A stretch of DNA of 64,000 bases from a virus (Duplodnaviria > Heunggongvirae > Uroviricota > Caudoviricetes): positions 41,062-105,061 of IMG/VR virus record IMGVR_UViG_2770939580_000003; one strand, given 5' to 3'. A model generated the notes under the pieces. It had not been told where the DNA came from and ran no database searches. It saw only the letters and a program-made list of their open reading frames with translations. Of the stretch, positions 1 through 41,659 are shown piece after piece (the stretch's first letter is position 1; each line of letters starts with the position of its first letter). Made by a program: the position numbers and the translations under genes.

Positions 1-300
1 TCTAATGATATGCGAAGCATAAATGACGCTACGTATGAATTGAAATCAGGGGAGGAGAAACCCATCGAGCCCATTAACAAAGCTATTCTATACCTAACCG
101 TCATAGAAATGATGTTCGAAGTGCTTCAATACAATGAAGTAGATCAATCGGAGCTTGTAGATGCTCTGATAATGCTAGGATTTGATCCTATGGAAATTCT
201 CTATGAGACGAATACGATTAGATCATTTCAGAAGATATGTAAAGCATTTTCCGAGCTTCATCTTACCGATGAAGAACTTACCACGTTTATTCAAACGTAA
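1..300 (+). CDS. hypothetical protein; likely 3' end of an ORF open from the window edge
   Basis: Reading frame open from nt 1 (track ORF 10..300); helical acidic protein; strong terminator follows at 339-394. Confidence 0.4.
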   Translation, partial: SNDMRSINDATYELKSGEEKPIEPINKAILYLTVIEMMFEVLQYNEVDQSELVDALIMLGFDPMEILYETNTIRSFQKICKAFSELHLTDEELTTFIQT

Positions 301-338
301 TTCGTCACCCCTAGCTAGAACATACTCCCATCTTTAAA

Positions 339-394
339 CAACAGCAGCAGAACCCTGTCTCTAACGACGTAGGGTTCTGCTGTTTATTATTTAT
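339..394 (+). terminator. rho-independent terminator (17-bp GC-rich stem AACAGCAGCAGAACCCT / AGGGTTCTGCTGTT followed by T-rich run)
   Basis: Perfect inverted repeat with 14-nt loop then TATTATTTAT, read directly from sequence. Confidence 0.7.
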
Positions 395-708
395 CGACTT
401 AACATTGTACAACCGAATTCGTATAACGTTTAAGAGCTACTTCTGATCAAATATTCAAAATAATAAATGTAGCTTCGTTATGAACAGAAAGGTTGACTTG
501 TGATCATGAATTTTACCTCACGAGGTGAAGAAACAAACTTGAATTCACTTCCGCTAGTTGGTATTCTGGATTTTCCCTCCGTACATTACCAATATGAGAC
601 AGAGCATCCCCAGAAGATTATTATTATTCAGAACTACTTCTTCCTTACAGATGCTCCTCACTTCAATGCCTGGTTAACAAACCAGATTGAACTTGCCAGA
701 GTCAAGTG

Positions 709-1497
709 TTAATCACTTTGACTCGGCTTCCCATTGCCCTTACGTCTACGTTCATCAATAATTACTTTTAACATCAGTAGCTCTCCGTAAGTCAATGCTC
801 TTTTCCGCACTTTTTCCACCCATGCCTGCTCATGGATAATTTGATCTTTATACGCATCACCAATATATTGGTTTAATTCTCTCCATGCCCATTCTGCATA
901 ATTCAATACTTGATTCATCTCATCATCCTCCGTTACTGTGTGCTCCACCAGCGAATTCAATTTTTTATGTACGTCCTGCTTAAACCTTTCATATTGTTCA
1001 GGTTCCTTGATCCATGGCAATGGACACTCCTTCCAGCCCACTACCTCCTTATGGGTGAAAAATATCTCTGGAAAACCTCTTTGTTGTATAAGATATACAG
1101 CCAAGTCGACCACTCGATTAAATGTATCCTCATGAATGCTTCCATCCTTTTCAATACACATCTCAATTCCTACAGTGCTATTGTTGGGATATGATCCCAA
1201 CTTCTTCAGAGCCTCTTCGGTGTATGTCTTGCTTCCACAATGATAAGCAACCTCGTCATCTGGGAGACTGCAATAAATAGATGTACGATCAACTGAAAAA
1301 TGAGCACTTGCGTAACGAGCTTTGGTACCCTTGCTCACATTCTGATGTGCAAGACCGGCAAAGTATTGGCTTATATTCCTAGCTGATGCCCCTGGAGAAG
1401 CTGTATAATGCATTACAATTCCACGTTTGGCTTTCAGCTTCAGCCCCGGCCGGCTATAGGGATTTAACGGAATATAGTCTTCAACTACATGAATCAT
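709..1497 (-). CDS. N-acetylmuramoyl-L-alanine amidase (PGRP/Amidase_2 catalytic domain + C-terminal wall-binding domain); endolysin
   Basis: MHYTASPGASARN..HFSVD..YHCG..THKEV..C motifs typical of zinc amidase_2; ATGA overlap with upstream holin. Confidence 0.85.
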   Translation of the reverse strand: MIHVVEDYIPLNPYSRPGLKLKAKRGIVMHYTASPGASARNISQYFAGLAHQNVSKGTKARYASAHFSVDRTSIYCSLPDDEVAYHCGSKTYTEEALKKLGSYPNNSTVGIEMCIEKDGSIHEDTFNRVVDLAVYLIQQRGFPEIFFTHKEVVGWKECPLPWIKEPEQYERFKQDVHKKLNSLVEHTVTEDDEMNQVLNYAEWAWRELNQYIGDAYKDQIIHEQAWVEKVRKRALTYGELLMLKVIIDERRRKGNGKPSQSD

Positions 1498-1919
1498 TGC
1501 GAATCCCCCCGATCGCCACTTTGCTGATTATTACCCCGAAGTTTGAATAATGCCGAAGCGATAAATTTAGGAACAGGAAGACCCATTTTCCCCATATTCT
1601 CCAATATACTAATTCCTTCTGTGCCGATAATAAACATTAACATTGCATCACGCATAAAATCATTTGAATTTCCAGCTACAATATCGAGTTGATGAGCAAT
1701 AATTACAAACACAAAAGTTAAAGATTTGCGTGCAAGTCCCCACCAGCCTACCCTGCTGGAAAGTTCCTTTTTGTACCAAGCAGCTAAAACTCCTGTAAAA
1801 TAATCCAATCCCACGAAAATCGTCACTGCAATTAACAGATGATTGATTCCTCCTACCAAATAAACTACAGCAGATAATGCCCATCCAAACATAATCATAA
1901 ATATCGTATCTTTCTGCAC
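1494..1919 (-). CDS. holin, phage_holin_4_1 (TcdE-like) family, 141 aa, 3-4 TM
   Basis: TM helices, VGLDYFTG motif characteristic of this holin family, charged C-terminus; immediately upstream of amidase. Confidence 0.8.
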   Translation of the reverse strand: MQKDTIFMIMFGWALSAVVYLVGGINHLLIAVTIFVGLDYFTGVLAAWYKKELSSRVGWWGLARKSLTFVFVIIAHQLDIVAGNSNDFMRDAMLMFIIGTEGISILENMGKMGLPVPKFIASALFKLRGNNQQSGDRGDSQ

Positions 1920-2029
1920 TGCCTTTCCCCCTTCATATCTGTTTGATGTCTAGGTTAGGCGGTTCACAGACTTCCTTCTCAACTTCCAATGAAACGTACC
2001 AAAAAACGATAAACTTTCGCAAAGCGAAC

Positions 2030-2080
2030 AGCAAAAATCCCTCTCGCCCTAAAGGGCAGGAAGGATTTTAATAAATTCAT
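2030..2080 (-). terminator. imperfect stem-loop terminator downstream of ytfJ-like fragment
   Basis: TCCTTCCTGCCC-TTTA-GGGCGAGAGGGA with G-U pairs followed by TTTTTG on minus strand. Confidence 0.4.
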
Positions 2081-2085
2081 TCTGT

Positions 2086-2505
2086 TTAGCTGTACGTCGA
2101 ATGGTCTGTTGGTGTTACCGGGATACCGGTTTCCGCTGCTGTATGGTTCCGATGGCGGAACATGTCCTGAATACGGTCGAGGACGTATGGAGTAGAATCA
2201 ATCAATTTTTCGAACAAGTGCGTCGAATTATCGAGTGGTACGATGTGCACGCCCTGTTTGCCTACAACCAGAAAGGCTATCGGACGGATAGATACACCAC
2301 CGCCACTACCGCCGCCGAACGGAGAAGCAACCTTGGCAGAATGCGCATGCTCTGTTGAGCTGGATGAATCGCTTCCTCTTTCAGTATTTACGTTAAAATC
2401 ACTTCCGCCTGCGGCAAAACCAAAGCCCACTTTACTGATCGGCAGAATAACGGTGCCATCCGGTGTTAGTAAAAGAACCAGTAGCTTGACTTAATTCATA
2501 AGCCT
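2086..2505 (-). pseudogene. ytfJ: 3' portion (about 115-140 codons) of a YtfJ/GerW-family sporulation protein gene lacking its 5' end; homology breaks near nt 2470
   Basis: VGFGFAAGGS...PFGGGSGGGVSIRPIAFLVVG...HLFEKLID matches Spore_YtfJ family; frame upstream of the listed Met stays open (..LTPDGTVILPISKVGFGF..) up to a TAA at about 2506 with no start codon. Confidence 0.55.
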
Positions 2506-2523
2506 TTTATACACATTAAATCC

Positions 2524-4011
2524 CTAAAGAAAATTTACAGTTACCATTGGCTTATCATCAAAGTCATTCTTAGTCCAAATTACATTATGAATGATACTTT
2601 TGTAAGCTCGATTAAGTTCTTTAGGGTCTTTCGTTTTTGTTATCTGATTCAGGACATCATTAACGCTGATAAGCATATCTTCATTTTTAGCATTCAGTGA
2701 ATTATCCAGTTGTGTCTTAATTACTCTATATTCTTCTTCAAGTTTATTGAGAATTTCATTTGCACGATTTAACCTCTCCAAGTACTTCTCTTTCGTGTAT
2801 GTTCCATCTTCTAAAAAATCATGGATTCGCTCAATAGCATTTTCTTGTTTTTTAATTTCTTGAATTTTGGTTTGAGCTATGTCAGCTAAGTTGCTCATAT
2901 CGGATGAACTTAAACCTTCAGCAATAGCATCTTCAATTTGTTTCTTTTTAATGATTAAAGCATTCAAAATGAAGTTTGTAACTACGTCTGACCTATCGCC
3001 TAAATTGCTGCATCTTTCACCAAACGGGTTTCGATGAGTACAAGATTTAAGCGTGTCATAACTTCTTCCTGTTCTTTTCTGGATAGACATCGTGTGATTG
3101 CATTTTCCACATATAACCAGTCCAGACAGGGCGTTTTTCCCAGAGCGACTTGCTTTTGGGGTTTTAATTTGAGAGCCAATTATAAACATTATCTTATCAT
3201 GTTCGAGTTGAGTTTTAACTGCTGTATGACAATTATTATAAATGATCCATTCATCTTTAGGTTTATAAACTAAGTCTCCCGTGTTGGACATTTTTCGTTT
3301 TTTCCCAACAATCACTTTTCCGAGATGAACTTCATCGCACAGTATCCTTCTAACAACCGCTGGATTCCACATTCCATCTCTTGGAGATTTAATACCCATC
3401 TTATTGAGCTCCCATGCAATGTCTGTACTAGACCATCCACTCATACATTTCTCTACCATAAATCTGTATGTAGGGAGGTTTTCTTCTACAGGTTCAGCTC
3501 TTCCAGTTTGAGCGTTTCTAATATACGGGAACGGTGGAACTCCGTTACTCCATAAGCCCTGTTTTGCATTTCTCGCTTTACCTTGTCTGAAACGTCTAGA
3601 TATTTGCTTATATTCCATTCGAGCCATCATGCCTTCGAATTCAGCCATAAGCATATCCGTGTCATTATTGTAATCGTATACTCTCTGAGGAGTAACCAAA
3701 AGTGTTTCTGATCTAGCAAATAATTTACTCAGTGTGGCTCTATCAACCTCATCACCACGACTCAGACGGTCAATGTGAATAACAAGTACAGCATCGAACA
3801 TCCCTTGTTCAATATCACTCATCAATTCAGTCATTTTAGGTCTTAGTGAAATTGAATCTGCTGTCCCAACCTCAGCATATTCAACATAAGCCCAACTATT
3901 CTGTTCGCACATAGAAAGTAATTCAGCTCTGTGCTTTTCCAAATCTTTTTCTTCGTCACCGCGCGATTTACGCAGATAAACTGCTACGTGCTTAATTACG
4001 TATTGACTCAA
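2524..4011 (-). CDS. large serine recombinase (resolvase catalytic domain + recombinase domain + zinc ribbon/coiled coil), 495 aa; integrase
   Basis: N-terminal VAVYLRKSRGDEE (catalytic Ser), ..DRLSRGDEVD.., size and C-terminal Cys cluster CGKCNH typical of SprA/phiC31-type integrases. Confidence 0.9.
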   Translation of the reverse strand: MSQYVIKHVAVYLRKSRGDEEKDLEKHRAELLSMCEQNSWAYVEYAEVGTADSISLRPKMTELMSDIEQGMFDAVLVIHIDRLSRGDEVDRATLSKLFARSETLLVTPQRVYDYNNDTDMLMAEFEGMMARMEYKQISRRFRQGKARNAKQGLWSNGVPPFPYIRNAQTGRAEPVEENLPTYRFMVEKCMSGWSSTDIAWELNKMGIKSPRDGMWNPAVVRRILCDEVHLGKVIVGKKRKMSNTGDLVYKPKDEWIIYNNCHTAVKTQLEHDKIMFIIGSQIKTPKASRSGKNALSGLVICGKCNHTMSIQKRTGRSYDTLKSCTHRNPFGERCSNLGDRSDVVTNFILNALIIKKKQIEDAIAEGLSSSDMSNLADIAQTKIQEIKKQENAIERIHDFLEDGTYTKEKYLERLNRANEILNKLEEEYRVIKTQLDNSLNAKNEDMLISVNDVLNQITKTKDPKELNRAYKSIIHNVIWTKNDFDDKPMVTVNFL

Positions 4012-4075
4012 ACTACGACCTCCATTCCGGTTTATATATGAACATCACACATTTAGTCGCACAATCAATTATAGT

Positions 4076-4105
4076 ACAAAAAAAGCCAAGTTGCCAAGTA
4101 GCAAC
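4076..4105 (-). terminator. weak stem-loop (GTTGC/GCAAC) plus T7 run after small ORF 4122..4313
   Basis: minus strand GTTGCtacttgGCAACttggcTTTTTTT. Confidence 0.3.
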
Positions 4106-4121
4106 ATGACTTCTATAGTAA

Positions 4122-4313
4122 TTATTTTCTTCTTTTGCTGTCCATTAAAATCTTAACAAACATCTTGCAATTCTCAACCGACGGCTCTCCATTTATAATT
4201 AAAGTTCCAAGGTTGGGAATGATATGTGTTTCGCTTCTCAATTTTTTCTCCAGATTTATCACCTCTATTATAACTTTTCCATTTTGGTCTACTTTATTCA
4301 TTTTCATTTCCAT
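4122..4313 (-). CDS. hypothetical small protein (63 aa) immediately upstream of recombinase
   Basis: ORF track; same strand tiling. Confidence 0.4.
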   Translation of the reverse strand: MEMKMNKVDQNGKVIIEVINLEKKLRSETHIIPNLGTLIINGEPSVENCKMFVKILMDSKRRK

Positions 4314-4429
4314 ATGTATTGATCGCTTCAGTAATGAAATCTTTTAAATAATAGTGCCATCTCGTTCTTGGTTTATATCCTCTAATCTCAATTCCAATTT
4401 CTTCGCAAATGGCTAGTGAAATACTACTT

Positions 4430-5023
4430 TTATTTACTTCTCATTTCTTTGAAGCTACTACAAACGTTATTTACTATCTCATCCTGAATAAATGCCTCTT
4501 TAGCAGCTTTCAGTATTGAGCAATTCCTTTTGTATCTGCTACATTCTTCGCATCTCTTAACAAAATCACCATACATCTGTTCGTCATCAAATATTCCTAT
4601 GTATTCTACGGGAGTAAAAACCAATTCAACCCTAGGATTCTTTTTGTCATATAATATGCGCTGAGTCCTTGTTAAAATTCTACTGTCGTTATCATATGCT
4701 ATCTTCTCTAGTGCATCGTTGTTGAGTTTGTAGATATTATTGTCATCCCTACCCTTGCGGTTAAAATAAATGATAGAATCCATGTACAAGTAGTGTGTTT
4801 TGGTGTACTCATAATCCCATTCTTGCTTGCTTACTTGGTCTGTAGCTGCCTCAATAATTTCTTTTTTAACTTTCTCACCTTCTTTACTAAGTATTCGTTT
4901 ACCTGTAGGCACTCTAGATCTGGTTTTCGGATTCCATGTGTATTGGTTTATGTATAAGTCATTTATTGAAACTGGTAATGGTAGTCTCAGTTGCAATTTC
5001 ATATCATGTTCAATAAGATTCAA
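4430..5023 (-). CDS. RusA-like Holliday junction resolvase with C-terminal Cys-rich extension
   Basis: LPVSINDLY...GKR...EGEK and RKGRDDNNIYKLNNDAL (Dx(D/N)N..K..D catalytic pattern of RusA family); C-terminal CEECSRYKRNC. Confidence 0.5.
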   Translation of the reverse strand: MNLIEHDMKLQLRLPLPVSINDLYINQYTWNPKTRSRVPTGKRILSKEGEKVKKEIIEAATDQVSKQEWDYEYTKTHYLYMDSIIYFNRKGRDDNNIYKLNNDALEKIAYDNDSRILTRTQRILYDKKNPRVELVFTPVEYIGIFDDEQMYGDFVKRCEECSRYKRNCSILKAAKEAFIQDEIVNNVCSSFKEMRSK

Positions 5024-5027
5024 TTAA

Positions 5028-5255
5028 TCATTCCTCTCCTGCAATTAATCTTTTAGCATGTACCGCTTTAATCAAACATTCATATGTATCGTGCACACAT
5101 GCTCCAAATACATCTAAAACTTCTTCTCCCACAATAATATCTTCCTTACAACCGTAACAGGTCGAATACTTCACCTCCTTTTCTTGTGAATCTGGATAAC
5201 GGATATCATGATAATCGCTATTAAATCTATCCATTTGATTTCTCAATTTTCTCAT
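5028..5255 (-). CDS. hypothetical Cys-rich small protein
   Basis: CYGC...C..H..C pattern. Confidence 0.4.
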   Translation of the reverse strand: MRKLRNQMDRFNSDYHDIRYPDSQEKEVKYSTCYGCKEDIIVGEEVLDVFGACVHDTYECLIKAVHAKRLIAGEE

Positions 5256-5361
5256 TCAGCAATTGATTAAGAACTGTTCCTACAACTTCTGTGTATTCTT
5301 CATTGGTCAACTTACGTCCAATAATTTGCTCAATCTTTTCTTTGCTAAGTTTGTTCTCCAT

Positions 5362-8300
5362 CTATGCATTCTCCTTATTCTTGTACTTGTTATAACCTGT
5401 GATCCAAACATCTGTCTGATCTGTGGCTCTGAAACCGCCATTTCCGTCTGGGACCTGTCTTGGTTTTTTCTTATGGCTCGTTATTTCAATTAAATCTCCT
5501 TTCTCAATTTTCAACGCTTTATCTTTGACGTTAAATGTTTTCTTGTCCATTTTAAAGACACGTTCATCGCCATTACGAAGATTGTATAAGGTAAGCTTGG
5601 GACTGTATTTAAGATCTAAATCGGTAACTACACACCAACCCGATTCTATATCGGGAAATACAGCTTCGGAGTACCCTAGCATTTCTTTTTGGAACATCAC
5701 TTCTTCGTTTGGCATAACTTTGGAGTAGTCATTTTCAGTGCGAATCCTATTTTCTTCATCAATTAGATCCGCTATCCTCTTAAGTTTAGTCTTCTCAACG
5801 TATGTTTTTTTATATTGAGATCTTCCACTTGAGAACTCTTTGTGCAATGTCACCAATAAACTAATGTCACCAAATTCTCTAAAGAACCCAAGACGAGTCA
5901 ATATATCAGTTTGACGACTGTTGACCGATGTTTTTTCGTTTAAATCCACTAGCAATTCAACAAATGATGCATATGTATTTTTACTTAAGGATAATAGTTC
6001 TTCTGCAATCTTTTCATTAAGGTATTTAATAGATTTTAAACCTTTGTAGATAGTATTATCGCCCTCACTAAATGAGTAATCAGCGTTAGACTTTCCAAAT
6101 TTTATTGGTGACACCTCAATACCTCTTGTTTTAGCATAGTTAATTATTTGACCCGTCTTTTCTATGTTGTCATTATTTATATTCAACATCACAGTAAGAA
6201 AGGCTAGAGGGTAGTAGTGTCTTAGATATCCATTTCCATAACCGATGTGAGAGTAAGGATTTGAGTGGTTATCGGAGAATCCATAACGCTGTGCATCATC
6301 TATGACCTGCAAAAAAGGCTCTAAGACAGCAAGCGCATCTTCTTCGGTCTCTCCGTAATCCATATTCATTTTTTGCACAAAACGCTTCCTTATCTCTGGC
6401 AGAAACTTCTCTGTTCCTTCTTTTTTACTCAATCCCCTTCGAACACTATCGCTTTCTGCCATTGTAAACTCGCAGAACTCTACTAGAAAGTTCATGATTT
6501 GTTCTTGATATACTAAGTATCCAATAGTACTCTTCAGAAAATTATTCAATGCTTCATGACCGTGATCTTTGAATATGCCATTTGCCAAAGCTTGTCTGTA
6601 TGAGTCTCCTGATGGTCTAATTGCTCCATTGCCAATTGAGAATAGCTCAATATAACTAAACATATCATTTTGTTCTTCTATCTTATGTATTGTTTCTTCG
6701 CTTAGTAGATCTTTTAGATATGCTTGGGCAGAATTACTTTCCCATTGGAATATTCCCAAACCAGACTCTCGTATGGAATTCCAGACATCTTTATCATCAA
6801 CATCCATATTGTCCGGTGTAAGCCGTTCAATTCCAGCTAGCTTACATGTCTCATTGATAATTTCATTGTTGTCCAAACCCAAAATATCCAACTTTACATA
6901 ATTGAGTCCATCGAGTTCTTTCATATTGATCTGACTTACTGGATACTTACTTTCTTTTGTATAACAAAGACCAATGTTATCTTCGAGACTTACTGGAGAA
7001 ACTATGTAGCCAGAAGGATGAGATCCTATGCTTACTATAACTCCTTGCACCAATTCAACATATTTGAATAATTCGGGATACATATCGAGATACTTCGGAT
7101 CTACTCTATCGACCTTCTTATCGTCTTTGAATACTGATTTAGCAATGGCGTCTACTATCGCAAGATCCATACCTAGAGCCCTTCCAACTTCTCTAATTGC
7201 TCCTTTTAGTGCCACAGTGTTAAAGGTGATAATCTCTGAGAAATGAATACCGGGAATTGTTGCTACGTAATCAATAACATCTTGCCTTTTAGATGGAGGC
7301 CAGTCCAAGTCAATATCGGCAAGCGAGATACGCTCTGGATTCAAGAACCGGAAAAAGTTCAGCTTATGTTTGATACTATCCATCTCAGTAATTTTCAATA
7401 AATACGCAATCAAGCTTCCGTTAACTGATCCACGACCATATCCTTGATAAATATCATTACTATGCGCCCAATCAACTACATCTTTCTGTAGGAGCATATA
7501 GTCAATTGCTCCAACCTTTTTATATGTATCAAACTCTTCTCTAATCCGTTTAAAATATGTATCTTTTTTTACTTTGTCAAACTTATTAATTCCTCGTTCG
7601 ATTACACCGACATTTATCTTTTCTTTAAACACTTTTTCTGAGTCGTCGTGCAGCTTAGGATACTTTGGCGACGAATCAATCTTAAATTCTTCGATCATAT
7701 CAGCCATAACGTTTGTATTATGTATAGCTTCAAGATAAACATTTCTAGGTAAAGCCGATTGCTCCTCAAACATTTTGACAACTTCAGGATATGTTTTAAA
7801 GGTTAGATCGAATGCATCTTCATCTCCATATGTCGCACCCTTAGCCTTCATTAGAATCTTACGTGCATCAGCATGAGATCTGTTTAAGGCGTGAGTGTCT
7901 GTTCCTGCAATAAGCGGTATACCTGTTTCAATTGATAAACTGTGTAGATGCTGGTTGAATAGCTTTTGCTCTGGGTGAGTGTGATATTGAATCTCAAAAA
8001 ACATTCTATGCTTATTGCTAACAAAGAAATCCATAAATTTGTTCATCATCTGCTTGTTGTCATTTTTAATAGCTCTCCATAACGGAGATGCTAGACAAGC
8101 AGATGTCATGATAATATTATCCGAAGTATTGAACAGTTCTTCAAAAGTAATCCTTGGATTATAATAATAATGTCCGTCATCTTTATTGTTCGAGAGTGAA
8201 GTCAGTTTGTTTAATTCCTGCGCTCCCTCAAGATTCTTTGCAATAAGCATGTAATGATAATTGTCGCGAATCAAACCACTTTCTTTGTCATTGTGCTCAG

Positions 8301-8505
8301 TGAGGTATACCTCATTCGCATGAATGTACTTCATACCTTTCTCTTCGATAGACTGCTTCTTCTTGACCCAATTAAAAACATTACCGTGTTCAGAGAAACA
8401 TATTGTTTGCATGTTAGCTTTTTCTGCTTCATCGATGTATTGTTGATATTTAGTCACAGAGTCTATAGCCATTGACGTTGATGGATTGCTAGTATCTGAA
8501 TGCAA
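5362..8505 (-). CDS. DNA polymerase III alpha (DnaE)-like replicative polymerase with N-terminal PHP domain, 1047 aa (SPbeta YorL-like)
   Basis: N-terminal PHP motifs (FSEHGNVF, HANEVY), long polymerase core; size; context with primase/helicase. Confidence 0.8.
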   Translation of the reverse strand: MHSDTSNPSTSMAIDSVTKYQQYIDEAEKANMQTICFSEHGNVFNWVKKKQSIEEKGMKYIHANEVYLTEHNDKESGLIRDNYHYMLIAKNLEGAQELNKLTSLSNNKDDGHYYYNPRITFEELFNTSDNIIMTSACLASPLWRAIKNDNKQMMNKFMDFFVSNKHRMFFEIQYHTHPEQKLFNQHLHSLSIETGIPLIAGTDTHALNRSHADARKILMKAKGATYGDEDAFDLTFKTYPEVVKMFEEQSALPRNVYLEAIHNTNVMADMIEEFKIDSSPKYPKLHDDSEKVFKEKINVGVIERGINKFDKVKKDTYFKRIREEFDTYKKVGAIDYMLLQKDVVDWAHSNDIYQGYGRGSVNGSLIAYLLKITEMDSIKHKLNFFRFLNPERISLADIDLDWPPSKRQDVIDYVATIPGIHFSEIITFNTVALKGAIREVGRALGMDLAIVDAIAKSVFKDDKKVDRVDPKYLDMYPELFKYVELVQGVIVSIGSHPSGYIVSPVSLEDNIGLCYTKESKYPVSQINMKELDGLNYVKLDILGLDNNEIINETCKLAGIERLTPDNMDVDDKDVWNSIRESGLGIFQWESNSAQAYLKDLLSEETIHKIEEQNDMFSYIELFSIGNGAIRPSGDSYRQALANGIFKDHGHEALNNFLKSTIGYLVYQEQIMNFLVEFCEFTMAESDSVRRGLSKKEGTEKFLPEIRKRFVQKMNMDYGETEEDALAVLEPFLQVIDDAQRYGFSDNHSNPYSHIGYGNGYLRHYYPLAFLTVMLNINNDNIEKTGQIINYAKTRGIEVSPIKFGKSNADYSFSEGDNTIYKGLKSIKYLNEKIAEELLSLSKNTYASFVELLVDLNEKTSVNSRQTDILTRLGFFREFGDISLLVTLHKEFSSGRSQYKKTYVEKTKLKRIADLIDEENRIRTENDYSKVMPNEEVMFQKEMLGYSEAVFPDIESGWCVVTDLDLKYSPKLTLYNLRNGDERVFKMDKKTFNVKDKALKIEKGDLIEITSHKKKPRQVPDGNGGFRATDQTDVWITGYNKYKNKENA

Positions 8506-8571
8506 ATGATAAATTACATAGTTATCCGTATGATCATCTCCTTACTTGCACACTTTTATAGAATTTGTTTC

Positions 8572-8600
8572 ATGTATTATATTTGTCTATTTGTGTTACA
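8572..8600 (-). repeat. variant copy of 21-bp intergenic motif (minus: ACACAAATAGACAAATATAATAC) upstream of DnaE-like gene
   Basis: sequence comparison. Confidence 0.4.
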
Positions 8601-8678
8601 TTATAATCACCTCCTCAAATCCTCCTATAAAGAGTCAATTATCCTTAATCTCATACTCTCTATAGGAGAACATTTCAT

Positions 8679-9701
8679 CTATAAGTTATAGACACCTTCA
8701 ACCTTCTTTGCTTCAGGTAGCTGAGATTCAATATCTCGTGCAGTAATTTCCATTAAGTTTTGACGTGACATCTTCTCGCGTCTCTTCATTAATCGAACCG
8801 CCTGATGTCTGATTGCCTTCTCGATAACATTTCTTACATATCTGGCATTACTAAAATGAATCCTCAGGTCTTTTTCATCTTGTATGATCTGTTTAAGTTT
8901 TAAACCTGCTTCATTTGTAAAGCTATAATCTTTCTCTGAAGACATCTTTAAAGCTATCAGCATTAATTCGTCTGTGGAATAATCATCAAAGTTAATCTGG
9001 ATAGGAAATCTTGAGGGCAATCCGGTATTAATCTGAAGGAAATCGTCCATCTCGATAGGATATCCAGCCAATATGATGATTAGATCGTCACTCTTATCTT
9101 CCATAACTTTTACAAGTGTATCTATAGCCTCTTTACCAAAGTCTTTTTCTCCTCCACGAGCAAGACTATACGCTTCATCAATGAAAAGTATCCCACCCAT
9201 AGCTTTTTTTACAAGGTCACGAGTCTTCAAGGCTGTATGACCAATGTACTCCCCCACTAAATCAGCACGTTCAACCTCAATCAAATGGCCTTTGCTTAGT
9301 ACACCCATTTTGTTGAGCATTTTGGATATTATTCTTGCTACTGTAGTTTTTCCTGTGCCGGGATTACCTTTGAAGATCATATGGTAAACCTGTTTGCTGT
9401 TCTTCAATCCCTCATCGCTTCGGTACTTGTTGATTTGGATTAATGAATAAATCTCATATATCAGATCCTTGACTTTATCAAGCCCAATCATTTCTTCCAT
9501 CTCATTAAAAATGTCTGCTGCGGATTCATTATTGTGATTACTTGTTAATGATATGTCCTCATTTTGCTCTAACGGCGCTCTGAGCCCACCATCAGCGTTG
9601 AATATAATATTGATCCTTGAATCATTAACAGTAATTTTCCTTAAACTTTCGTCCACAGTCATCACCTCGTTAAGACAGTATATGCTCCTGTGTTGGTGCA
9701 A
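8679..9701 (-). CDS. AAA+ ATPase, SpoVK/CbbX-like
   Basis: Walker A GNPGTGKTT, Walker B ILFIDEAYSL, sensor/arginine finger region; about 100-aa N-terminal extension. Confidence 0.75.
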   Translation of the reverse strand: MHQHRSIYCLNEVMTVDESLRKITVNDSRINIIFNADGGLRAPLEQNEDISLTSNHNNESAADIFNEMEEMIGLDKVKDLIYEIYSLIQINKYRSDEGLKNSKQVYHMIFKGNPGTGKTTVARIISKMLNKMGVLSKGHLIEVERADLVGEYIGHTALKTRDLVKKAMGGILFIDEAYSLARGGEKDFGKEAIDTLVKVMEDKSDDLIIILAGYPIEMDDFLQINTGLPSRFPIQINFDDYSTDELMLIALKMSSEKDYSFTNEAGLKLKQIIQDEKDLRIHFSNARYVRNVIEKAIRHQAVRLMKRREKMSRQNLMEITARDIESQLPEAKKVEGVYNL

Positions 9702-9756
9702 AATGCTTATCTGATTTTATTGATTATGATATATGTATAGTAGGCCGAAGCCTACA

Positions 9757-10029
9757 TTAAAATGAACCAAATAGTTCGTCCAGTTTGTCATCGTATACCT
9801 CTGAACTTTCCATTTGTTCCTCTTCGCTCTGCATGGAAAGTTCCGTATCCTCCTCAAAAGGGAGAGGCAATTCGTTTATGTTAAGGCTTGAACCAGTACC
9901 AAAAAACAATAGTCTCAATGCCCTCCTAACCACATCGCTTTTATCTTCGTGGGGAGGTAATCTTTTCCACGCTTCAATAAGATCCTCATCTTTATTGGGT
10001 CTAAGTCTTGCTCTAGCAGCTATTTCCAT
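9757..10029 (-). CDS. ribbon-helix-helix small protein with acidic tail; candidate ParR/AlfB-like adaptor for the upstream actin-like ATPase
   Basis: N-terminal KDEDLIEAWKRLPPHEDKSDVVRRALRLL (RHH-like), overlaps end of actin-like gene by 10 nt. Confidence 0.4.
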   Translation of the reverse strand: MEIAARARLRPNKDEDLIEAWKRLPPHEDKSDVVRRALRLLFFGTGSSLNINELPLPFEEDTELSMQSEEEQMESSEVYDDKLDELFGSF

Positions 10030-10997
10030 GATTTCTTTCCAATCTTTCCATATCCTCTAACTTGAGCGAGTTGATCCATCAAAATCTTGTTTGGAAGATC
10101 TAAGTATTCAAAAATAAATCGAGCGGCCCCACCAGCGATTAAGTAGATGTCAAAGTTGGTATTCAAACTTTCAATTTCATTTTTGATTTGTCTAGCTAAC
10201 GATTTAAATGCTTTTTGAATTAGTGGAACTATATTGTGTCCAAGGTAATTACCTGAGATAACATAAGTGTCTAATTCGTATATAGCTGGAGTATGCCCAG
10301 TTAGTTTTTGTATGTAAGTTTGTAATAGCGTGTACGCTTTCTCTACCCCCACTAAAACACTTTTGGATTCTTTTAATATACTGGATTTGCTGAATCCTAG
10401 TAAATTCAAAGTGTAAAATCCCAGATCGACAGTTAGTATCTTTTGTTTGGCTGCTTTTACTTTAGCGATTTTGCCATCGTCACCTAATAGATAGTCCATT
10501 GTAACACCTAATCCTTGAGGAACTATCTTGCATTCTTCAATAACAGGCTGGACAGTAATGTTGTTTCCCTTACCTTTACGAATCTTATATTCACCCTGAT
10601 CAGCCAATCCCAAAAGTTTTTGTTCAAATGGAGCTTTTTGTTTAAAGTAAAAGTCAATAGGAAGTCCACTTACTAATTTCACTTTTTCTTTTTTAGCTAA
10701 ATACCCCAGAGTAGTCTTCATGACCACTTCACTTGTCTCAGCCTCGGCTTTATTATTATTGAGAGAGAAGTATTTAACATCACTGTATTCTACGGCAGCA
10801 TTTCCTACGAACAACTCATCGTTGTAAATGAAGTGGTCTGATTTTATATTTTGTTCAAATAAGTCTTTAGCTTCCCCAGCTATAGTTGGTTGACGAAAGA
10901 ACTTTCCTCCTCTCTCACCTTTAGTCCATTTAAATCCAAGGTCTAAATTTAATGTGTTATACAAAATGGTACAACCTCCTTTTGAAGTCATGTACAC
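10020..10997 (-). CDS. actin-like ATPase (ParM/StbA family); true start probably the TTG at 10964 preceded by AAAGGAGG
   Basis: phosphate-1 NLDLGFKWTKGE, phosphate-2 VDLGFYT, adenosine IYLIAGGAARF motifs; RBS AAAGGAGG lies inside the annotated 5' end. Confidence 0.6.
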   Translation of the reverse strand: MYMTSKGGCTILYNTLNLDLGFKWTKGERGGKFFRQPTIAGEAKDLFEQNIKSDHFIYNDELFVGNAAVEYSDVKYFSLNNNKAEAETSEVVMKTTLGYLAKKEKVKLVSGLPIDFYFKQKAPFEQKLLGLADQGEYKIRKGKGNNITVQPVIEECKIVPQGLGVTMDYLLGDDGKIAKVKAAKQKILTVDLGFYTLNLLGFSKSSILKESKSVLVGVEKAYTLLQTYIQKLTGHTPAIYELDTYVISGNYLGHNIVPLIQKAFKSLARQIKNEIESLNTNFDIYLIAGGAARFIFEYLDLPNKILMDQLAQVRGYGKIGKKSWK

Positions 10998-11100
10998 AGA
11001 TATACCAGATTGAGATAGTCTGTTCCATTTGTGTACATTTGTGGCCTCTATAGATTGATTGTACCATTTATAATTGTTTATGTACAGTATTATCTTTGTA
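10990..11100 (-). promoter_or_regulatory. cluster of TGTACA hexamer repeats (4 copies) upstream of actin-like gene; candidate centromere/operator
   Basis: TGTACA at about 10990, 11033, 11069(GGTACA variant), 11090 read from sequence. Confidence 0.35.
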
Positions 11101-11106
11101 TTTTAA
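11086..11106 (-). repeat. 21-bp intergenic motif copy (plus AGTATTATCTTTGTATTTTAA)
   Basis: exact reading. Confidence 0.7.
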
Positions 11107-11159
11107 ATATCTACTTTACACCCCTGTATCACCCATGATCCTGTAAAATTGATGTTTCA

Positions 11160-11651
11160 TCAGGAATTTGCCTTCAAAAAAGGCTGATATCTCAAGGATA
11201 ATTCAGTTAGCCATTCTTCGTTATCACAATTTTCACTTCGAGTAACCAAAGCAAGATCAATCATTGAGGATATTTGCTCCCCAGTAAGTTCAACATCGTC
11301 TATTTCTACATCGCAGTAAAAATTCACTATCTCATGATACTTGTTTGGATTGGCAACAGCATTTAACTTGTTTTCTATGTATAATTCTAAGTTCACTTTA
11401 GCTTCAGGATACTCTTTCTTAATCATGTTGACTGCCTCATGGTATGTAAACTTTCTCAGATGATCTCCATCAAACTGAAAATTGATAATGAAACTATTGA
11501 AGTGAAGTCTTCTTAGTATGTAGTCATATGATACTGTTTTTTGATCGAAAATGTATTCCATGTTCAACTTCTTCTCTTTAAAAGCTGGATAGAATACTCT
11601 CAAATGCTTATCGAACAGCTTAAACAATTCTTTGTCATTTAGTTTTATCAT
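11160..11651 (-). CDS. hypothetical protein
   Basis: ORF track; tiling. Confidence 0.5.
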   Translation of the reverse strand: MIKLNDKELFKLFDKHLRVFYPAFKEKKLNMEYIFDQKTVSYDYILRRLHFNSFIINFQFDGDHLRKFTYHEAVNMIKKEYPEAKVNLELYIENKLNAVANPNKYHEIVNFYCDVEIDDVELTGEQISSMIDLALVTRSENCDNEEWLTELSLRYQPFLKANS

Positions 11652-11840
11652 ATATATTTACCTTTCTATTAATATGGGTCATTCTCAGACTGATAATATT
11701 CTAAGCCATAGTTCATTTGCCATTCAATCAGTTTTGCTATGTATTTATCGTACTTTACTTTCTCAATCAATCCATTTTCAAATCTTACATTTAATATTTT
11801 AGTGTAATTTTGTATTGGAATAACGTATCTCTCCTACTTT

Positions 11841-12068
11841 CTATTTAACTTTTAAAGGCGTATAACAATCAGAACAAACAATCCATGTACAAGTATCTAG
11901 ACGATTTGAAAACTGATACCATTTAGATGGCACAAACCATTCTTTAGTGGATATGAATCTAGCTATGGCTTCACAGTTACTACAATATAGAGAATCGGTG
12001 TTACTATGTATTCTTGCAGAAGGCTTGTATCCATATATGCCTAAATGCTTCTTTACTTTTTCACTCAT
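11841..12068 (-). CDS. hypothetical zinc-ribbon protein
   Basis: CSNC...CSDC. Confidence 0.45.
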   Translation of the reverse strand: MSEKVKKHLGIYGYKPSARIHSNTDSLYCSNCEAIARFISTKEWFVPSKWYQFSNRLDTCTWIVCSDCYTPLKVK

Positions 12069-12351
12069 GCTGACTCACGATTTTTGCGACACAGTATAGA
12101 TCGCCTTTTCTAAATACATTTGCATATTCCATAGCTTCTGTTTTTGTATCAAATTCATCAATCCTATATCCAGAATCTAACCTATGTTCCCAAAATGAAA
12201 TTACGATCCACTTATAATCTACATTTTCGTCCTCGTCTGACAATCTAATTGTTTTATCAAATTCACCCTGTCTGTAAGCCTCATTGTAGTAAGCTTGTCT
12301 GAGTGATTCCATTTCTTTTGAATAAAATAGCTCTTTAAGTGGTTGATTGTC
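12061..12351 (-). CDS. hypothetical protein (start re-set to MDNQPLK preceded by GGGGAGGGAA)
   Basis: RBS-supported internal start removes most of the overlap with 12335..12631. Confidence 0.4.
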   Translation of the reverse strand, partial: DNQPLKELFYSKEMESLRQAYYNEAYRQGEFDKTIRLSDEDENVDYKWIVISFWEHRLDSGYRIDEFDTKTEAMEYANVFRKGDLYCVAKIVSQHE

Positions 12352-12631
12352 CATTCTCAATTCCCTCCCCAAAATAATCATTAATTGCTTCCTCAATATA
12401 GCTTTTTCCAATATTCAATGAATAGTTAACATTAAAAACGGTTTGATATACTAATGGACATATTTTCTTTTTGATTTTTACATTGTGGCTGTGAATTACT
12501 CCTACTCTTTCGATCCACTCTGAATTATTCTTATAAATGATTTTATATGTAACATTATCACGTTCAATGTATTTAATGACTTTATTTCTGCTCAAAACGC
12601 TCCTCTTTTCTATGTAAAATATAAGTTTCAT
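12335..12631 (-). CDS. hypothetical protein
   Basis: ORF track. Confidence 0.4.
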   Translation of the reverse strand: MKLIFYIEKRSVLSRNKVIKYIERDNVTYKIIYKNNSEWIERVGVIHSHNVKIKKKICPLVYQTVFNVNYSLNIGKSYIEEAINDYFGEGIENGQSTT

Positions 12632-12643
12632 TTAAACTATGTA

Positions 12644-13282
12644 TTAAGAAAATGCTGGAGCCAACTTAGTAATACTACGCTTATATGCCTGATGAACTGC
12701 CTGACGACTCACCTTTAACTCTTTGCCGATATCTGTTAATGCATCGCCCTCAAAAAAGTACTTAAATGAAACAACTTTTTCTTTTTCGGTTAAACTAGAC
12801 TCAATTAAATTAGTTAGTTTATGATTAAACTCATCTTCTTCAACCTTGTCAAAATCGAGATGAGATTCATTTGATAAGACCTCCGCAATAGTCTTTTCAC
12901 TGCTTTGATCTGCTTTCCCAAGAGGTGTATCTAAACTAATCGAATCAAATGAGCCTCGACACTTCATGTGCTTATAGCGTTCAGCTTTCACAAACTCCAT
13001 CCATACAACTCGACCAGCATACGTAACAAACTTAATGTCCTTTGAGGTATCATATGTATCAAATGCAACAATCAAACCGTATAAACCCAAACTTACCAAG
13101 TCATCTAAATCGTCCGTGTACCCAGCTTTTTTCCATTTGTTTGCCAGTTTTACTGCGATACGAATATTATTGTTGATTACCTTATCCTTCAGCTCTTTAC
13201 TGTCAGTTTCTTTTGCTACCAAAATCATTGCCTCATTATCAAAATTCGGGTCATACTGTTGTAGCATCATATTAAAATTCAT
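12644..13282 (-). CDS. sigma-70 family RNA polymerase sigma factor (regions 2 and 4 only), phage-encoded
   Basis: region 2: DLVSLGLYGLIVAFDTYD...FVTYAGRVV; region 4 HTH: LTDIGKELKVSRQAVHQAYKRSITKL. Confidence 0.75.
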   Translation of the reverse strand: MNFNMMLQQYDPNFDNEAMILVAKETDSKELKDKVINNNIRIAVKLANKWKKAGYTDDLDDLVSLGLYGLIVAFDTYDTSKDIKFVTYAGRVVWMEFVKAERYKHMKCRGSFDSISLDTPLGKADQSSEKTIAEVLSNESHLDFDKVEEDEFNHKLTNLIESSLTEKEKVVSFKYFFEGDALTDIGKELKVSRQAVHQAYKRSITKLAPAFS

Positions 13283-13464
13283 TTTCTCTACCTATTGCAT
13301 ATGCAACTCTGGCACATGCCCTTATTATGTATTTGTGTTGACGATAATTTTTGTAAAACGTATAATGTAGTTACAATAGACTAAGGTTTAACCGGGAGCA
13401 GTCATTGCCTTAATTGGAGTGGCTGCTCTTTTTGATGAAGAAAGTGCTTCATTAAGACTATGTA

Positions 13465-14211
13465 TTAACTAAATGTTGGTTCAGGCTTCGCTTCGACCTC
13501 AACACAGTCTGAATCGGACTCAACATCGATAATCAAAGAAGTATAGTTCTGATTCAATTTCATTAGCAAGAGCTCAAAATCGTTTAAGTGTCTAAGAGAC
13601 TTCAAATCCTTTACTTCATGACGCTCAATGTCCCACCCTTTATCTTTACTGTCCTTCCAACGATGCAATCTGATGGATTGGTTCATCTCTTCATCTTTCT
13701 CACATTCAAAAATCAAGTTTGCATATTCGTAAGACCCCCAGTGTCTTTCTTCGCTGTACTCTACCTCTAATGTAACTTCAGCATATTCATAACTAACGCC
13801 ATCATCATAATCAACTTCTAATTTATTCGTATCAATATTCTTACCTACAAAGTCCATCCAATGTTTGTACAGATCTGATACATTTAAATGCTTTACTTTT
13901 TCGTCTGTAGTCATAAGATTCTTGAAATTACTAAGAAGTTGTTTATTCTCAAGTGCTGAGTTTTGGAGTACATCTACCAGTACCGCATCCAATTTAGTTA
14001 TGTATTGTGAATAGTCGTAAGTCTCAAGATAGGGAACCATTACCGATTTAACTTTATCCTCAATGATCTTTGTGACATCGCCGTATGAGCGGAATAGATT
14101 TTCAAGTGCATTTACTACACCTTTCTCCAGTTGTTGTTCAATCAACTTCTCTACAGTTCCATCCTCAAGCTTTCTAGTAATTGTATCTTTAATGCTATTT
14201 TCAAGTGTCAT
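13465..14211 (-). CDS. hypothetical acidic protein (248 aa)
   Basis: ORF track; between sigma factor and GHKL protein. Confidence 0.5.
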   Translation of the reverse strand: MTLENSIKDTITRKLEDGTVEKLIEQQLEKGVVNALENLFRSYGDVTKIIEDKVKSVMVPYLETYDYSQYITKLDAVLVDVLQNSALENKQLLSNFKNLMTTDEKVKHLNVSDLYKHWMDFVGKNIDTNKLEVDYDDGVSYEYAEVTLEVEYSEERHWGSYEYANLIFECEKDEEMNQSIRLHRWKDSKDKGWDIERHEVKDLKSLRHLNDFELLLMKLNQNYTSLIIDVESDSDCVEVEAKPEPTFS

Positions 14212-14254
14212 ATATTATATCTCCCTTTTATTTGAAGTGTTTTATAAAGAATGA

Positions 14255-16084
14255 TTAGGCCATCGCCAAACCGTCAATCAGACAGTCATACAGATCTTTC
14301 GGTCTTTCTACTTCGTCAAAATTCATTAGGTTAACTGCTCGAACAATCTCTTTCAAGTTCCGTAGGAGGAATTTATAGTCGCTTATATCTAGATTCTCTT
14401 CGTTACTTTCCCTAAGTTTACTGTCATCGATTACTGTTCTATCTATGTATACCTTGTTGTTAATGTAGTCATGCACAGCCACAAAGTCTTCTTCAATCTT
14501 TTCAATCGTGTGATTTAACACCTCAATTTGAGTTTGCTTTAGTACCATTACGTCGCCTATAGAGAATACATTTCTGCTGAACCCGATCATTCGACTAATC
14601 ATGTCCAGTAACATTAGGGCTCGGCTCTCTTTTTTACTTAGCTCAGTATTTGAGATAGATGCTTTAATCAACGTGTTCTCAGTTAGTTCTGAGATATGTA
14701 CAATGTTTTGATCCTTGCCCAATGTCTCTAATATTCCGCTTTCTATTTTGTTCCTCGATACAATCACTTTTAATTTGTAATGCTCTGCAATTTTAAATTT
14801 CTTCTCATGTTCGACAATTTGATCAAACGATAACCAAAATACTGGCTCAGAGCTAAAGTCGATCTGTTGTCCTTTTCTTTCTTCGATTTTATCCTCATCA
14901 ATTTCGGGTTCACTTCGTCCACCAGATGATCCTTCACTTCCATACCAAGTAGAAATACCTTCTGCTTCTGGGGCTTTGTTATTAACCTCTTGAGTGAATT
15001 CAATCTCTTTATGATTTGATTCAGATTGTTTGGCTGCTTCTGATTTAATAAAAACCTCATATTGATTGACGCTTCTGATTTCTGGATTCTTTCTTTTAGC
15101 TAAGGCGATGCTATTAAGATATTTCGAATCATCCTTATTCTCAGTATCAAACACTAGGAATGACATCTCATTTTTCAATTTTCCCTTGTCTGCATTCCAT
15201 GAGATAGCATCAATATGCTTCTCAATGTGTCTCTGCTCACCATGTAGAAAACCGTTATTGGCAAGCTCTTTGGTATACCCCGATACTTCCTTTAAGAATG
15301 CAGAGTATTTATCATCTCTAATGATGTCTTTGCGATCTGGAGAGGTTAGATTTAAGGTTTTGTCGTTGATATGTAAATCGCCTTTAACATAATAATAACT
15401 ATCAAGTTTAGTTACCAACCTACCTTTATAAAACACTTTTAGGTCTTGACTGAATCCTGAGTTCAATGCAATCCAACCTTGAATATTGTCTGATTCAATC
15501 ACACTAGAAAACACGCTGCCATCTGTGTCTGTCAAATTCTTTTTTGGTTGAAGTTTATCGTCACAATAGATATCTAATTCATGTATGTATTTTCCTAGCA
15601 ATTCGATTCTTTCACGAATCAATGATGCTGATACTTCCGTAAAGTCAAAATTGTTCAGTATCAATTTGAAACCTTCATATGTATTGTCTGTCTCAGTTAC
15701 TTCTATGTCTGTTTTGTTATTCTGAATCATCACACCAACATTAAAGATAATATGTTTATTCCCCGTAATCACTTCGATGTTGTCGCTCACAGTAATGTTA
15801 CTGAAGAATCCCATCCCAAACGGCGACTCTGATCTTTGAATGTCTTCATCCCACTCTGACTCAGCTATTGAAAATAGAGCTTGTGAATTCGTTAGTGTCT
15901 GACCATTGTTTTCAATTGTGACTTTATTGTTGTAGTAATCTACTGTTACTCTAACTTCGGTTGCTTTGGCTCGTTGGGCGTTCTGAATATCTTCATCAAG
16001 GAACGACAGTTTATCTTTGAAAGTGCTCTGTCTTAACAGTTTCAATTGGTTAATCACGTTAACTTTTACTTGGACATTATTCAA
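14255..16084 (-). CDS. GHKL (histidine-kinase/MutL/Hsp90-like) ATPase domain protein, 609 aa
   Basis: N-box EDIQNAQRAKATEV, G1 ENNGQTL, G2 FGMGFFS near N-terminus. Confidence 0.5.
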   Translation of the reverse strand: MNNVQVKVNVINQLKLLRQSTFKDKLSFLDEDIQNAQRAKATEVRVTVDYYNNKVTIENNGQTLTNSQALFSIAESEWDEDIQRSESPFGMGFFSNITVSDNIEVITGNKHIIFNVGVMIQNNKTDIEVTETDNTYEGFKLILNNFDFTEVSASLIRERIELLGKYIHELDIYCDDKLQPKKNLTDTDGSVFSSVIESDNIQGWIALNSGFSQDLKVFYKGRLVTKLDSYYYVKGDLHINDKTLNLTSPDRKDIIRDDKYSAFLKEVSGYTKELANNGFLHGEQRHIEKHIDAISWNADKGKLKNEMSFLVFDTENKDDSKYLNSIALAKRKNPEIRSVNQYEVFIKSEAAKQSESNHKEIEFTQEVNNKAPEAEGISTWYGSEGSSGGRSEPEIDEDKIEERKGQQIDFSSEPVFWLSFDQIVEHEKKFKIAEHYKLKVIVSRNKIESGILETLGKDQNIVHISELTENTLIKASISNTELSKKESRALMLLDMISRMIGFSRNVFSIGDVMVLKQTQIEVLNHTIEKIEEDFVAVHDYINNKVYIDRTVIDDSKLRESNEENLDISDYKFLLRNLKEIVRAVNLMNFDEVERPKDLYDCLIDGLAMA

Positions 16085-40591: not shown

Positions 40592-41659
40592 TCATTTGGA
40601 AAATGTGCAAATACAATCATCCAAAAACGTATTGAATTGTTCTTTGCCCTTATCAACAGGCGACATCTTGTCTGCAAATATATCTTTATTATCATACACA
40701 TAATAGACTCGTCTACCCTTAATCTGCCTCAATTGATTTAAAACAAACTCTTCATCCTTACCTTTATCCCACAAAAACACTAAATCAATATCAATCCCTA
40801 AATCTTTGAGAAGTTTAACCTGAACAGGAGACAGTCTATCTCCCTCTATGGATACAGAGTTTTTAATTCCCCATCCCCATAAGGTCATTGCTGTTTTTGC
40901 ACCCTCAACAATGTACACTTTTTTCTTATCTTGAATATGAGCTCTAGATCTGTGTAAATTAAATAGTTCAATAGCTTTGCTACAAGGGTAAATATACGAA
41001 TATTTTTTATGGGCAAGTAATTCTTTATCTTGACCGACATATCTACCTTTAACGCCTATTAATTTCCCCATTGAGTTATGAATAGGTATACTCACTCTGT
41101 TCGTGGGTAAATGGTATCCAATACCAAACTCTCTTTGGGTATGAACATCTATTCCTTCACCAATCCAATCGTACCACCCATCTAAAATGAATTCATTTAA
41201 AACTCTGTCGTCTAGAACTGGATTGCTTGTCACTTCATAGATTTTAGGACGTTGCTTTTGTATATCCCTAAGCCACCAATTCCAATCGGTCTTCGGTTTC
41301 TCGTTAGGAAAGTTTGTTTCAGTGTGTTCATAACCTAGAGAGTTACATATGTAAGTTTTAATTTGATACAGTTTAGACCTGACTTCATCGAAGTTTTTAC
41401 ATTCGTATAAAACAAATCCAACCAGAGCATATATGTCTCCACTTATACCTTCTCCAACCAGTTCTGTATGAAGTGTCTCATTCAGGTAAATCTGTGCTCC
41501 CCGTGGATTTTTCGATCCGGGTAGTCTAGCTGTGACTAGATCGTCTCCGCTGCGTCCTGATTTAATCTTTATATCTAAACAGCCCAACTCTTCTAATAGC
41601 TGCCCAATTGTGCCTTCATCATATATTCGTTCTTTTAATAGTTTGAGCGAGTCAGACAC
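40592..41659 (-). CDS. DNA primase (TOPRIM domain)
   Basis: VYIVEGAKTAMTLW...DIDLVFLWDKG (E..D..D TOPRIM acidic residues); adjacent to helicase. Confidence 0.65.
   Translation of the reverse strand: MSDSLKLLKERIYDEGTIGQLLEELGCLDIKIKSGRSGDDLVTARLPGSKNPRGAQIYLNETLHTELVGEGISGDIYALVGFVLYECKNFDEVRSKLYQIKTYICNSLGYEHTETNFPNEKPKTDWNWWLRDIQKQRPKIYEVTSNPVLDDRVLNEFILDGWYDWIGEGIDVHTQREFGIGYHLPTNRVSIPIHNSMGKLIGVKGRYVGQDKELLAHKKYSYIYPCSKAIELFNLHRSRAHIQDKKKVYIVEGAKTAMTLWGWGIKNSVSIEGDRLSPVQVKLLKDLGIDIDLVFLWDKGKDEEFVLNQLRQIKGRRVYYVYDNKDIFADKMSPVDKGKEQFNTFLDDCICTFSK

Follow-up and report, generated by a model that had tools for sequence, protein, structure and literature searches.

Skin, SPbeta and the other established intervening elements reside in genes of the mother cell and are excised only there, and the spore keeps the element (PMC4191935). 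Known targets of SPbeta-like phages are spsM, kamA (phi3T) and spoVK (Goe14), and skin lies in sigK (PMC6957869; bioRxiv 10.1101/2021.11.22.469490). Here we describe a junction between phage and host DNA in a 64,000-nucleotide (nt) stretch of a virus record (IMG/VR IMGVR_UViG_2770939580_000003, positions 41,062 to 105,061; the whole stretch is called the window below), in which the sporulation gene gerW (ytfJ) of Paenibacillus barcinonensis abuts the gene of a large serine recombinase. We put at about 0.9 the probability that window positions 2456–2526 are the attachment (att) site attR of a large temperate phage integrated at codon 36 of gerW, and that gerW is most likely inactivated by it. 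In the forespore of Bacillus subtilis and B. megaterium, sigmaF drives transcription of gerW, and no germination defect is seen in gerW mutants (PMC4366231); the gene is listed among those of most spore formers (preprint 10.1101/2022.02.25.481979).

The locus resembles SPbeta and its recombinase SprA (YokA) in spsM of B. subtilis, in that a very large temperate siphovirus keeps its recombinase gene beside the att site, a sporulation-related gene is split at a bacterial site, attB, within its coding sequence, and a short shared core is set between inverted-repeat arms (PMC4191935, PMC5499854). It differs in that its recombinase shares only about 30% identity with SprA, the backbone of its phage is nearer to that of FADO/PBC2-type phages, the host is a Paenibacillus, the target is known from Bacillus as a forespore sigmaF gene and not as a mother-cell gene, and no SprB-like factor was identified. 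A preliminary description of this DNA, made from the sequence alone, had likened it to SPbeta and skin; the likeness is borne out for a SprA-like recombinase inside a sporulation gene, but does not extend to close kinship with SPbeta. As in phi3T, Goe14 and skin, the recombinase is retargeted to a conserved gene of the sporulation phase and the coding sequence is disrupted, whereas here, unlike in those cases, the same codon is hit in several Paenibacillus species by recombinases that have diverged to 51% identity. A phage site (attP) that carries a copy of the 3′ end of the target gene is typical of tyrosine integrases directed at tRNA or tmRNA genes. The attP arm found here likewise repeats 9–10 nt of its target, but the overlap amounts to about 12 base pairs (bp) instead of a gene segment, the target gene stays broken, and the enzyme belongs to the serine and not to the tyrosine integrases. 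No prophage integration into ytfJ/gerW was found in the open full-text literature or in the supplements of a large survey of integrative elements (PMC7192596), in agreement with the preliminary description, although 'unreported' is provisional, subscription literature and integrase catalogues having been outside the scope of the search.

The junction and its empty counterpart

The recombinase gene occupies 2524–4011 (coordinates are those of the window, and features lie on the minus strand unless noted otherwise) and is followed by an open frame, 2089–2490, that has no ATG and whose first canonical start is a GTG at 2430. As the preliminary description had it, this frame runs to the C-terminus of a YtfJ/GerW protein: it matches the Pfam family Spore_YtfJ (PF09579) with an expect value (E) of 1.7e-26 and 92.7 bits (cut-off 25) over profile positions 3–81 of 81. 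The first 32 residues, where intact relatives carry MSDHPIQGLMETAMENIKAMVDVNTIVGDAVE, are missing from the fragment, and neither MSDHPIQGLMETAMENIKAMVDVNTIVGDAVE nor the 5′ part of ytfJ nor the upstream host DNA is present in the 64-kilobase (kb) window. A scan of species-representative genomes with the fragment gave 80 loci, nearly all of them Paenibacillus, and in all 80 the homology begins at nt 2466–2467 (residue 9 of the open frame, the T of TPDG), which places the abrupt start reported 'near 2470' and puts it about 10 nt from the likely crossover. The best match among these loci is to P. silvae (91% amino acid (aa) identity). The gene is intact in 79 of the 80 and interrupted only in L020 (Paenibacillus sp. 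QZ-Y1), and in the relatives it sits in the orthologous position, between ytfI (DUF2953) and downstream host genes. Judged by the Spore_YtfJ match, by identity to a prophage-free contig discussed below and by GC content, the host-derived 3′ portion of gerW/ytfJ extends over 2086–2457, from codon 36 to the stop codon at 2086–2088; its GC content is 50.4%, against 35.8% for everything to its right. Directly past the stop codon lies an intrinsic-terminator-like hairpin of the host gene (2056–2039; T-run, then ATTTTTGCTG), the terminator that had been ascribed to the fragment.

The DNA on the far side of the fragment (1–2085) is host chromosomal flank and lies outside the element, as indicated by synteny with loci that have an intact ytfJ and by near-identity to the prophage-free contig. 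It encodes a holin (Phage_holin_4_1; 1494–1919; PYE51425.1) and an N-acetylmuramoyl-L-alanine amidase (Amidase_2; 709–1497; PYE51424.1), both identified with Pfam, and a 96-aa open reading frame (ORF) on the plus strand (10–300). In 14 Paenibacillus loci the holin (81–88% aa identity), the amidase (76–80%) and the 96-aa ORF follow an intact ytfJ in the order and orientation of the window, with window positions 2467–740 and 272–51 collinear with the DNA 3′ of the intact gene at 71–78% nt identity.

The closest comparison is with the prophage-free contig L090, which comes from another sequencing run, has an identical amidase and reads scpA-scpB-ytfI-ytfJ-holin-amidase. Its ytfJ is intact (158 aa) and, over the last 126 residues, matches the window's fragment exactly. 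The contig matches window 1–2466 at 99.88% identity (2463 of 2466 nt), and the identity stops exactly at 2466; upstream of this point L090 continues with the 5′ part of ytfJ (..GCTGTAGAG) and the window with phage DNA (..TTTTACTA). L090 is thus the empty attB of the same species, P. barcinonensis. Because the 3′ portion of ytfJ, the holin and the amidase are 99.9% identical in this prophage-free contig, they are host DNA, and the proposal that the element carries a replacement 3′ portion of its target has to be abandoned. The same conclusion is reached from L020, whose recombinase is 96% identical to that of the window while its ytfJ fragment is only 79% identical and its downstream flank differs, being collinear over 3.9 kb with prophage-free relatives of the L020 host; the fragment therefore follows the host and not the phage.

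Attachment sites, free-phage form and far junction

The att sites were compared in centre-aligned form, using five lysogen attR sites (those of the window, L020, L082, L087 and L088), two attP, one attL and several attB. The phage-derived side of attR spans 2458–2526, as aligned with the attR of L020, L082 and L087 and the attP of L084 and L083, and contains the P half-site GGTTCTTTTACTAACACCGGAT (2479–2458) and an outer repeat, TAGGGATTTAATGT (2526–2513), that overlaps the stop codon of the integrase gene. The host-derived B′ half-site, CACCGTTATTCTGCCGATCAGT (2434–2455), matches the attB of L090, L035, L006 and L022, and its single difference from the L090 attB is synonymous. Between the half-sites, at 2457–2456, is the dinucleotide GG, the first two bases of the codon for Gly36 of YtfJ and the only element common to all the att sites compared. 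In attP, a 46-bp site with imperfect inverted ends GGTTC..GAACC, it occupies the central positions 23–24; from this symmetry and from the comparison, GG is most likely the crossover dinucleotide. The integration site, codon 36, falls in the conserved VETPDGTVILP motif of YtfJ. Since the last 9 nt of the phage arm (ACACCGGAT, 2466–2458) are identical to host ytfJ, the homology seems to start about 10 nt ahead of the likely crossover.

In P. spiritus a single contig has both junctions, 166.9 kb from each other, and ACGG is all that attL and attR have in common; TGTATT, returned as their core by a naive longest-common-substring search, was set aside as irrelevant in favour of ACGG with GG at its centre, by eye and from the centre-aligned comparison. 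The P. spiritus attL is flanked by ribDEAH-scpAB-ytfI, and its attR by a dacB-type (Peptidase_S11) gene and two spmA/spmB-type (Gate-domain) genes.

The attP form occurs in the metagenome phage contigs L084/L085 (recombinase 82% identical to that of the window) and L083 (70%), in which the recombinase gene leads through a short intergenic region with the 46-bp att site directly into phage genes. The attP of L084 reads GGTTCTTTCACTAACACCAGAT GG GTGTAGAGTTGATAAAAGAACC, 46 bp with inverted ends; outside these is another inverted repeat, TAGGGGTTTAATGT .. ACATTAAACCCCTAA, which overlaps the stop codon of the integrase gene. With ytfJ it shares only AACACCAGATGG, and across the attP forms of L084, L085 and L083 about 12 bp are shared. 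The first phage gene on the attP side encodes a protein of about 235 aa, and the holin, amidase and tail genes that come after it are on the opposite strand. The protein has three CapR-homology (PF21817) zinc-ribbon repeats (L086 10001–10908, L084 5463–6176, L083 11653–12351), and in lysogens its gene has the same orientation as the gerW promoter and the 36-codon stub, which precede it by about 50 bp. As a candidate SprB-like factor it had no meaningful relative in the PDB, and a literature search for a link between CapR and recombination directionality factors returned nothing relevant, judged by title or abstract.

A search with the 5′ stub peptide predicted from attP retrieved at least 10 protein clusters of 40–64 aa in which YtfJ residues 1–36 (..VETPDG) are fused to differing short tails. 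One of them is the P. barcinonensis stub itself (P0122, PYE51677.1), a 50-aa protein that reads MSDHPIQ...VETPDG followed by the phage-derived tail CVVNIITRKAALNP. Its accession number comes 251 after that of the recombinase, PYE51426, a spacing that suggests some 250 genes between the two junctions. The P′ arm at the attL of the window prophage is predicted to end ..AAACCCCTAA. The complementary junction foreseen in the preliminary description was in this way recovered as regards the 5′ end of ytfJ; a displaced 3′ copy was found at none of the attL stubs, P0122 included. The same junction recurs in L020, L081/L082, L087 and L088, with recombinases 51–96% identical to that of the window, and the break falls after ..TPDG in all five lysogens and in every one of the stub clusters. 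The empty site, the attP forms, the attL stub and this recurrence, together with the alignment of an intact ytfJ that ends at 2466, uphold the original idea of a serine-integrase junction inside ytfJ/gerW.

As two side observations on the P. barcinonensis draft, the holin and the recombinase have consecutive accessions (PYE51425, PYE51426), so that the ytfJ 3′ fragment (2086–2430) is not annotated there as a protein, and the 50-aa 5′ stub is listed as a hypothetical protein.

Recombinase, prophage body and neighbouring genes

The recombinase (495 aa, with its TAG stop at 2524–2526 within the gene coordinates) is full length and has all three domains of its class: Resolvase (PF00239, 7e-21, residues 9–153), Recombinase (PF07508, 1e-12) and Zn_ribbon_recom (PF13408, 2e-08). 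Its nucleophile motif is YLRKSRGD, with Ser16 as the serine. By domain content and att-site anatomy we assign it to the large serine recombinases, as had been proposed. An exact-sequence look-up gave 100% identity to P. barcinonensis PYE51426.1, and among solved structures the SPbeta integrase YokA/SprA comes nearest (E 3e-38, aligned over residues 3–478), although identity to the integrases of the SPbeta group (SprA, phi3T, Goe11) is only about 30%. An IMG/VR scan with the recombinase as query found no relatives. The integrase and ytfJ frames are one reading frame, with two stops between them (TAG 2526–2524, TAA 2493–2491). As no terminator-like hairpin is present between the two genes (2491–2526), transcription of the integrase gene probably continues to the terminator of host ytfJ. 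In Priestia flexa (L089, 4001–7470) a recombinase 42% identical to that of the window lies behind a similar RusA gene, and a 620-aa thioredoxin-domain (DsbH-type) gene takes the place of ytfJ after it; the limit of the ytfJ-targeting clade appears to fall somewhere between 51% and 42% identity.

The remainder of the window (2458–64000) is the left 61.5 kb or so of the prophage, which continues past the window; its ORFs are almost all on the minus strand and its GC content is about 36%. By Pfam and PHROG matches it encodes a RusA-like protein, the alpha subunit of DNA polymerase III, a clamp-loader-like protein, ribonucleotide reductase, a RecJ-like exonuclease, a DnaB helicase, a primase and a second DNA polymerase, and the replication genes are long, intact ORFs. 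Scans of the whole window for tRNAs and Rfam families gave no hits, the 61.5 kb of prophage included. The prophage DNA polymerase is nearest (54–57% aa identity) to those of FADO, PJN02, PBC2 and Kirov, Bacillus siphoviruses of 160–168 kb, an affinity that fits the 167-kb prophage of P. spiritus; the window prophage is probably about 165 kb long. No nucleotide match to window 1–6000 was found among 50,697 phage records, near and distant. Membership in Spbetavirus was rejected on this result, on the roughly 30% identity of the recombinase to those of phi3T and Goe11, and on the FADO/PBC2-type polymerase.

The holin and amidase genes were also considered as the phage's own lysis genes, a view rejected on their 99.9% identity in prophage-free L090; they have no match at E<1e-10 in the attP- and attL-flank loci of the related phages L084 and L086. 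The pair (709–1919) is low in GC, 38–42% against 50% for ytfJ, and lies directly 3′ of ytfJ in 14 of the 80 loci, being absent in others such as L035 and L020. The L090 DNA beyond the pair (3465–14675, left of window position 1) encodes glycosyltransferases and includes a 1270-aa ORF and a YomU-type tail-tube gene. It seems that ytfJ borders, on its 3′ side, on a second and older island of phage origin.

Alternative explanations and the fate of gerW

We propose that the serine recombinase joins the quasi-palindromic attP of about 46 bp, just 3′ of its own gene, to attB inside gerW/ytfJ, and that strand exchange at the GG of codon Gly36 would insert a phage genome of about 165 kb. The attL, outside the window, would keep the sigmaF-type promoter, the ribosome-binding site and codons 1–36, which would then encode the 50-aa stub, and the remaining 122 codons with the host terminator would come to lie behind the integrase gene. 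In the lysogen gerW would be silent, to be rebuilt only by precise excision. The fragment has no promoter, no Shine-Dalgarno sequence or other ribosome-binding site and no ATG, and two stops part it from the integrase frame, so that gerW is left split; with its 5′ part more than 61 kb away, the phage segment does not re-complete the gene, as the preliminary description had supposed. Loss of gerW function is the most likely outcome, as far as can be judged from sequence. Some points weigh against this account. Translation of the fragment could start at the GTG at 2430 on a transcript that reads through from the integrase gene, although the product would lack part of the conserved domain; the core and GG of the window prophage are deduced from its relatives; and the prophage may no longer be inducible, its integrase being presumed active.

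Were the 3′ four-fifths of ytfJ carried by the phage beside attP, integration would merely swap the host 3′ end and the gene would stay whole. The lysis-type genes beyond the fragment do make it look internal to a phage, and the attP arm has its 9–10 nt identical to ytfJ, but L090, where fragment, holin and amidase recur at 99.9% identity with an intact ytfJ and no prophage, refutes this, and we regard it as extremely improbable. The synteny of fragment, holin and amidase extends to 14 other genomes, the contigs in attP form contain nothing of ytfJ past the 12 bp or so, the attL stub is fused straight to phage sequence with no displaced copy, no continuous gene is present at the junction, and the fragment tracks the phylogeny of the host and not that of the phage. 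That the junction is instead a dead remnant, left by a decaying, immobile prophage or by a chance deletion and now without function, is unlikely, although it would agree with the occupation of just one of the 80 species-representative loci. Against such decay stand the full-length recombinase with all its domains, the long, intact replication ORFs and the related phages present in attP form in metagenomes, while the 99.9% identity of the flank in a non-lysogenic sibling implies recent integration or excision and the matching attL stub excludes a deletion.

An element of the SPbeta/skin type, in which excision regulated by sporulation and a directionality factor rebuilds gerW, would account for insertion by a SprA-like recombinase at codon 36 of a conserved sporulation gene and for the use of one site by diverged recombinases in several species, a kind of reuse that Mageeney et al. 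read as a sign of regulated gene integrity (PMC7192596). At attL the promoter side of gerW lies about 50 bp ahead of the first phage gene and points the same way, which would also agree with regulated excision. We nevertheless find such an element very doubtful, as expression of gerW, under sigmaF, is confined to the forespore in B. subtilis and B. megaterium (PMC4366231), whereas the established cases concern mother-cell genes (PMC4191935). For a gene expressed in the forespore, excision of the mother-cell type would bring no repair unless the spore also lost the prophage, and excision in the forespore would take the prophage out of the germ line. No directionality factor was identified, the attL-proximal end being outside the window, and there may be little pressure to restore a gene whose mutants have no germination defect (PMC4366231). 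We favour a tolerated knock-out at a highly conserved, reliably available target sequence. At attL the first phage gene, that of the CapR-homology/zinc-ribbon protein, lies directly in the path of the sigmaF promoter of gerW and the 36-codon stub, and the insertion could conceivably wire a phage function (excision, the lysogeny switch or spore-associated carriage of the phage genome) to forespore-specific transcription. This is quite unlikely, but if true it would be a new kind of coupling between phage and sporulation and not a passive knock-out.

Both the target gene and the integrase clade seem to be additions to a well-known kind of integration, with no new mechanism shown; the one unusual aspect is a target that, in Bacillus, is expressed in the forespore. 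The locus adds gerW/ytfJ, at codon 36, to the sporulation genes that serve as landing sites for large serine integrases, and it defines a Paenibacillus integrase clade (51–100% identity) with a well-delimited attP/attB pair, potentially a further orthogonal integrase/att set. It should also aid prophage annotation, in which the 3′ fragment would otherwise be read as a pseudogene and the 50-aa stub as a hypothetical protein. As gerW is known as a forespore gene, the lysogens would be natural gerW-disrupted strains, and they could help settle the role of this conserved but phenotypically silent gene.

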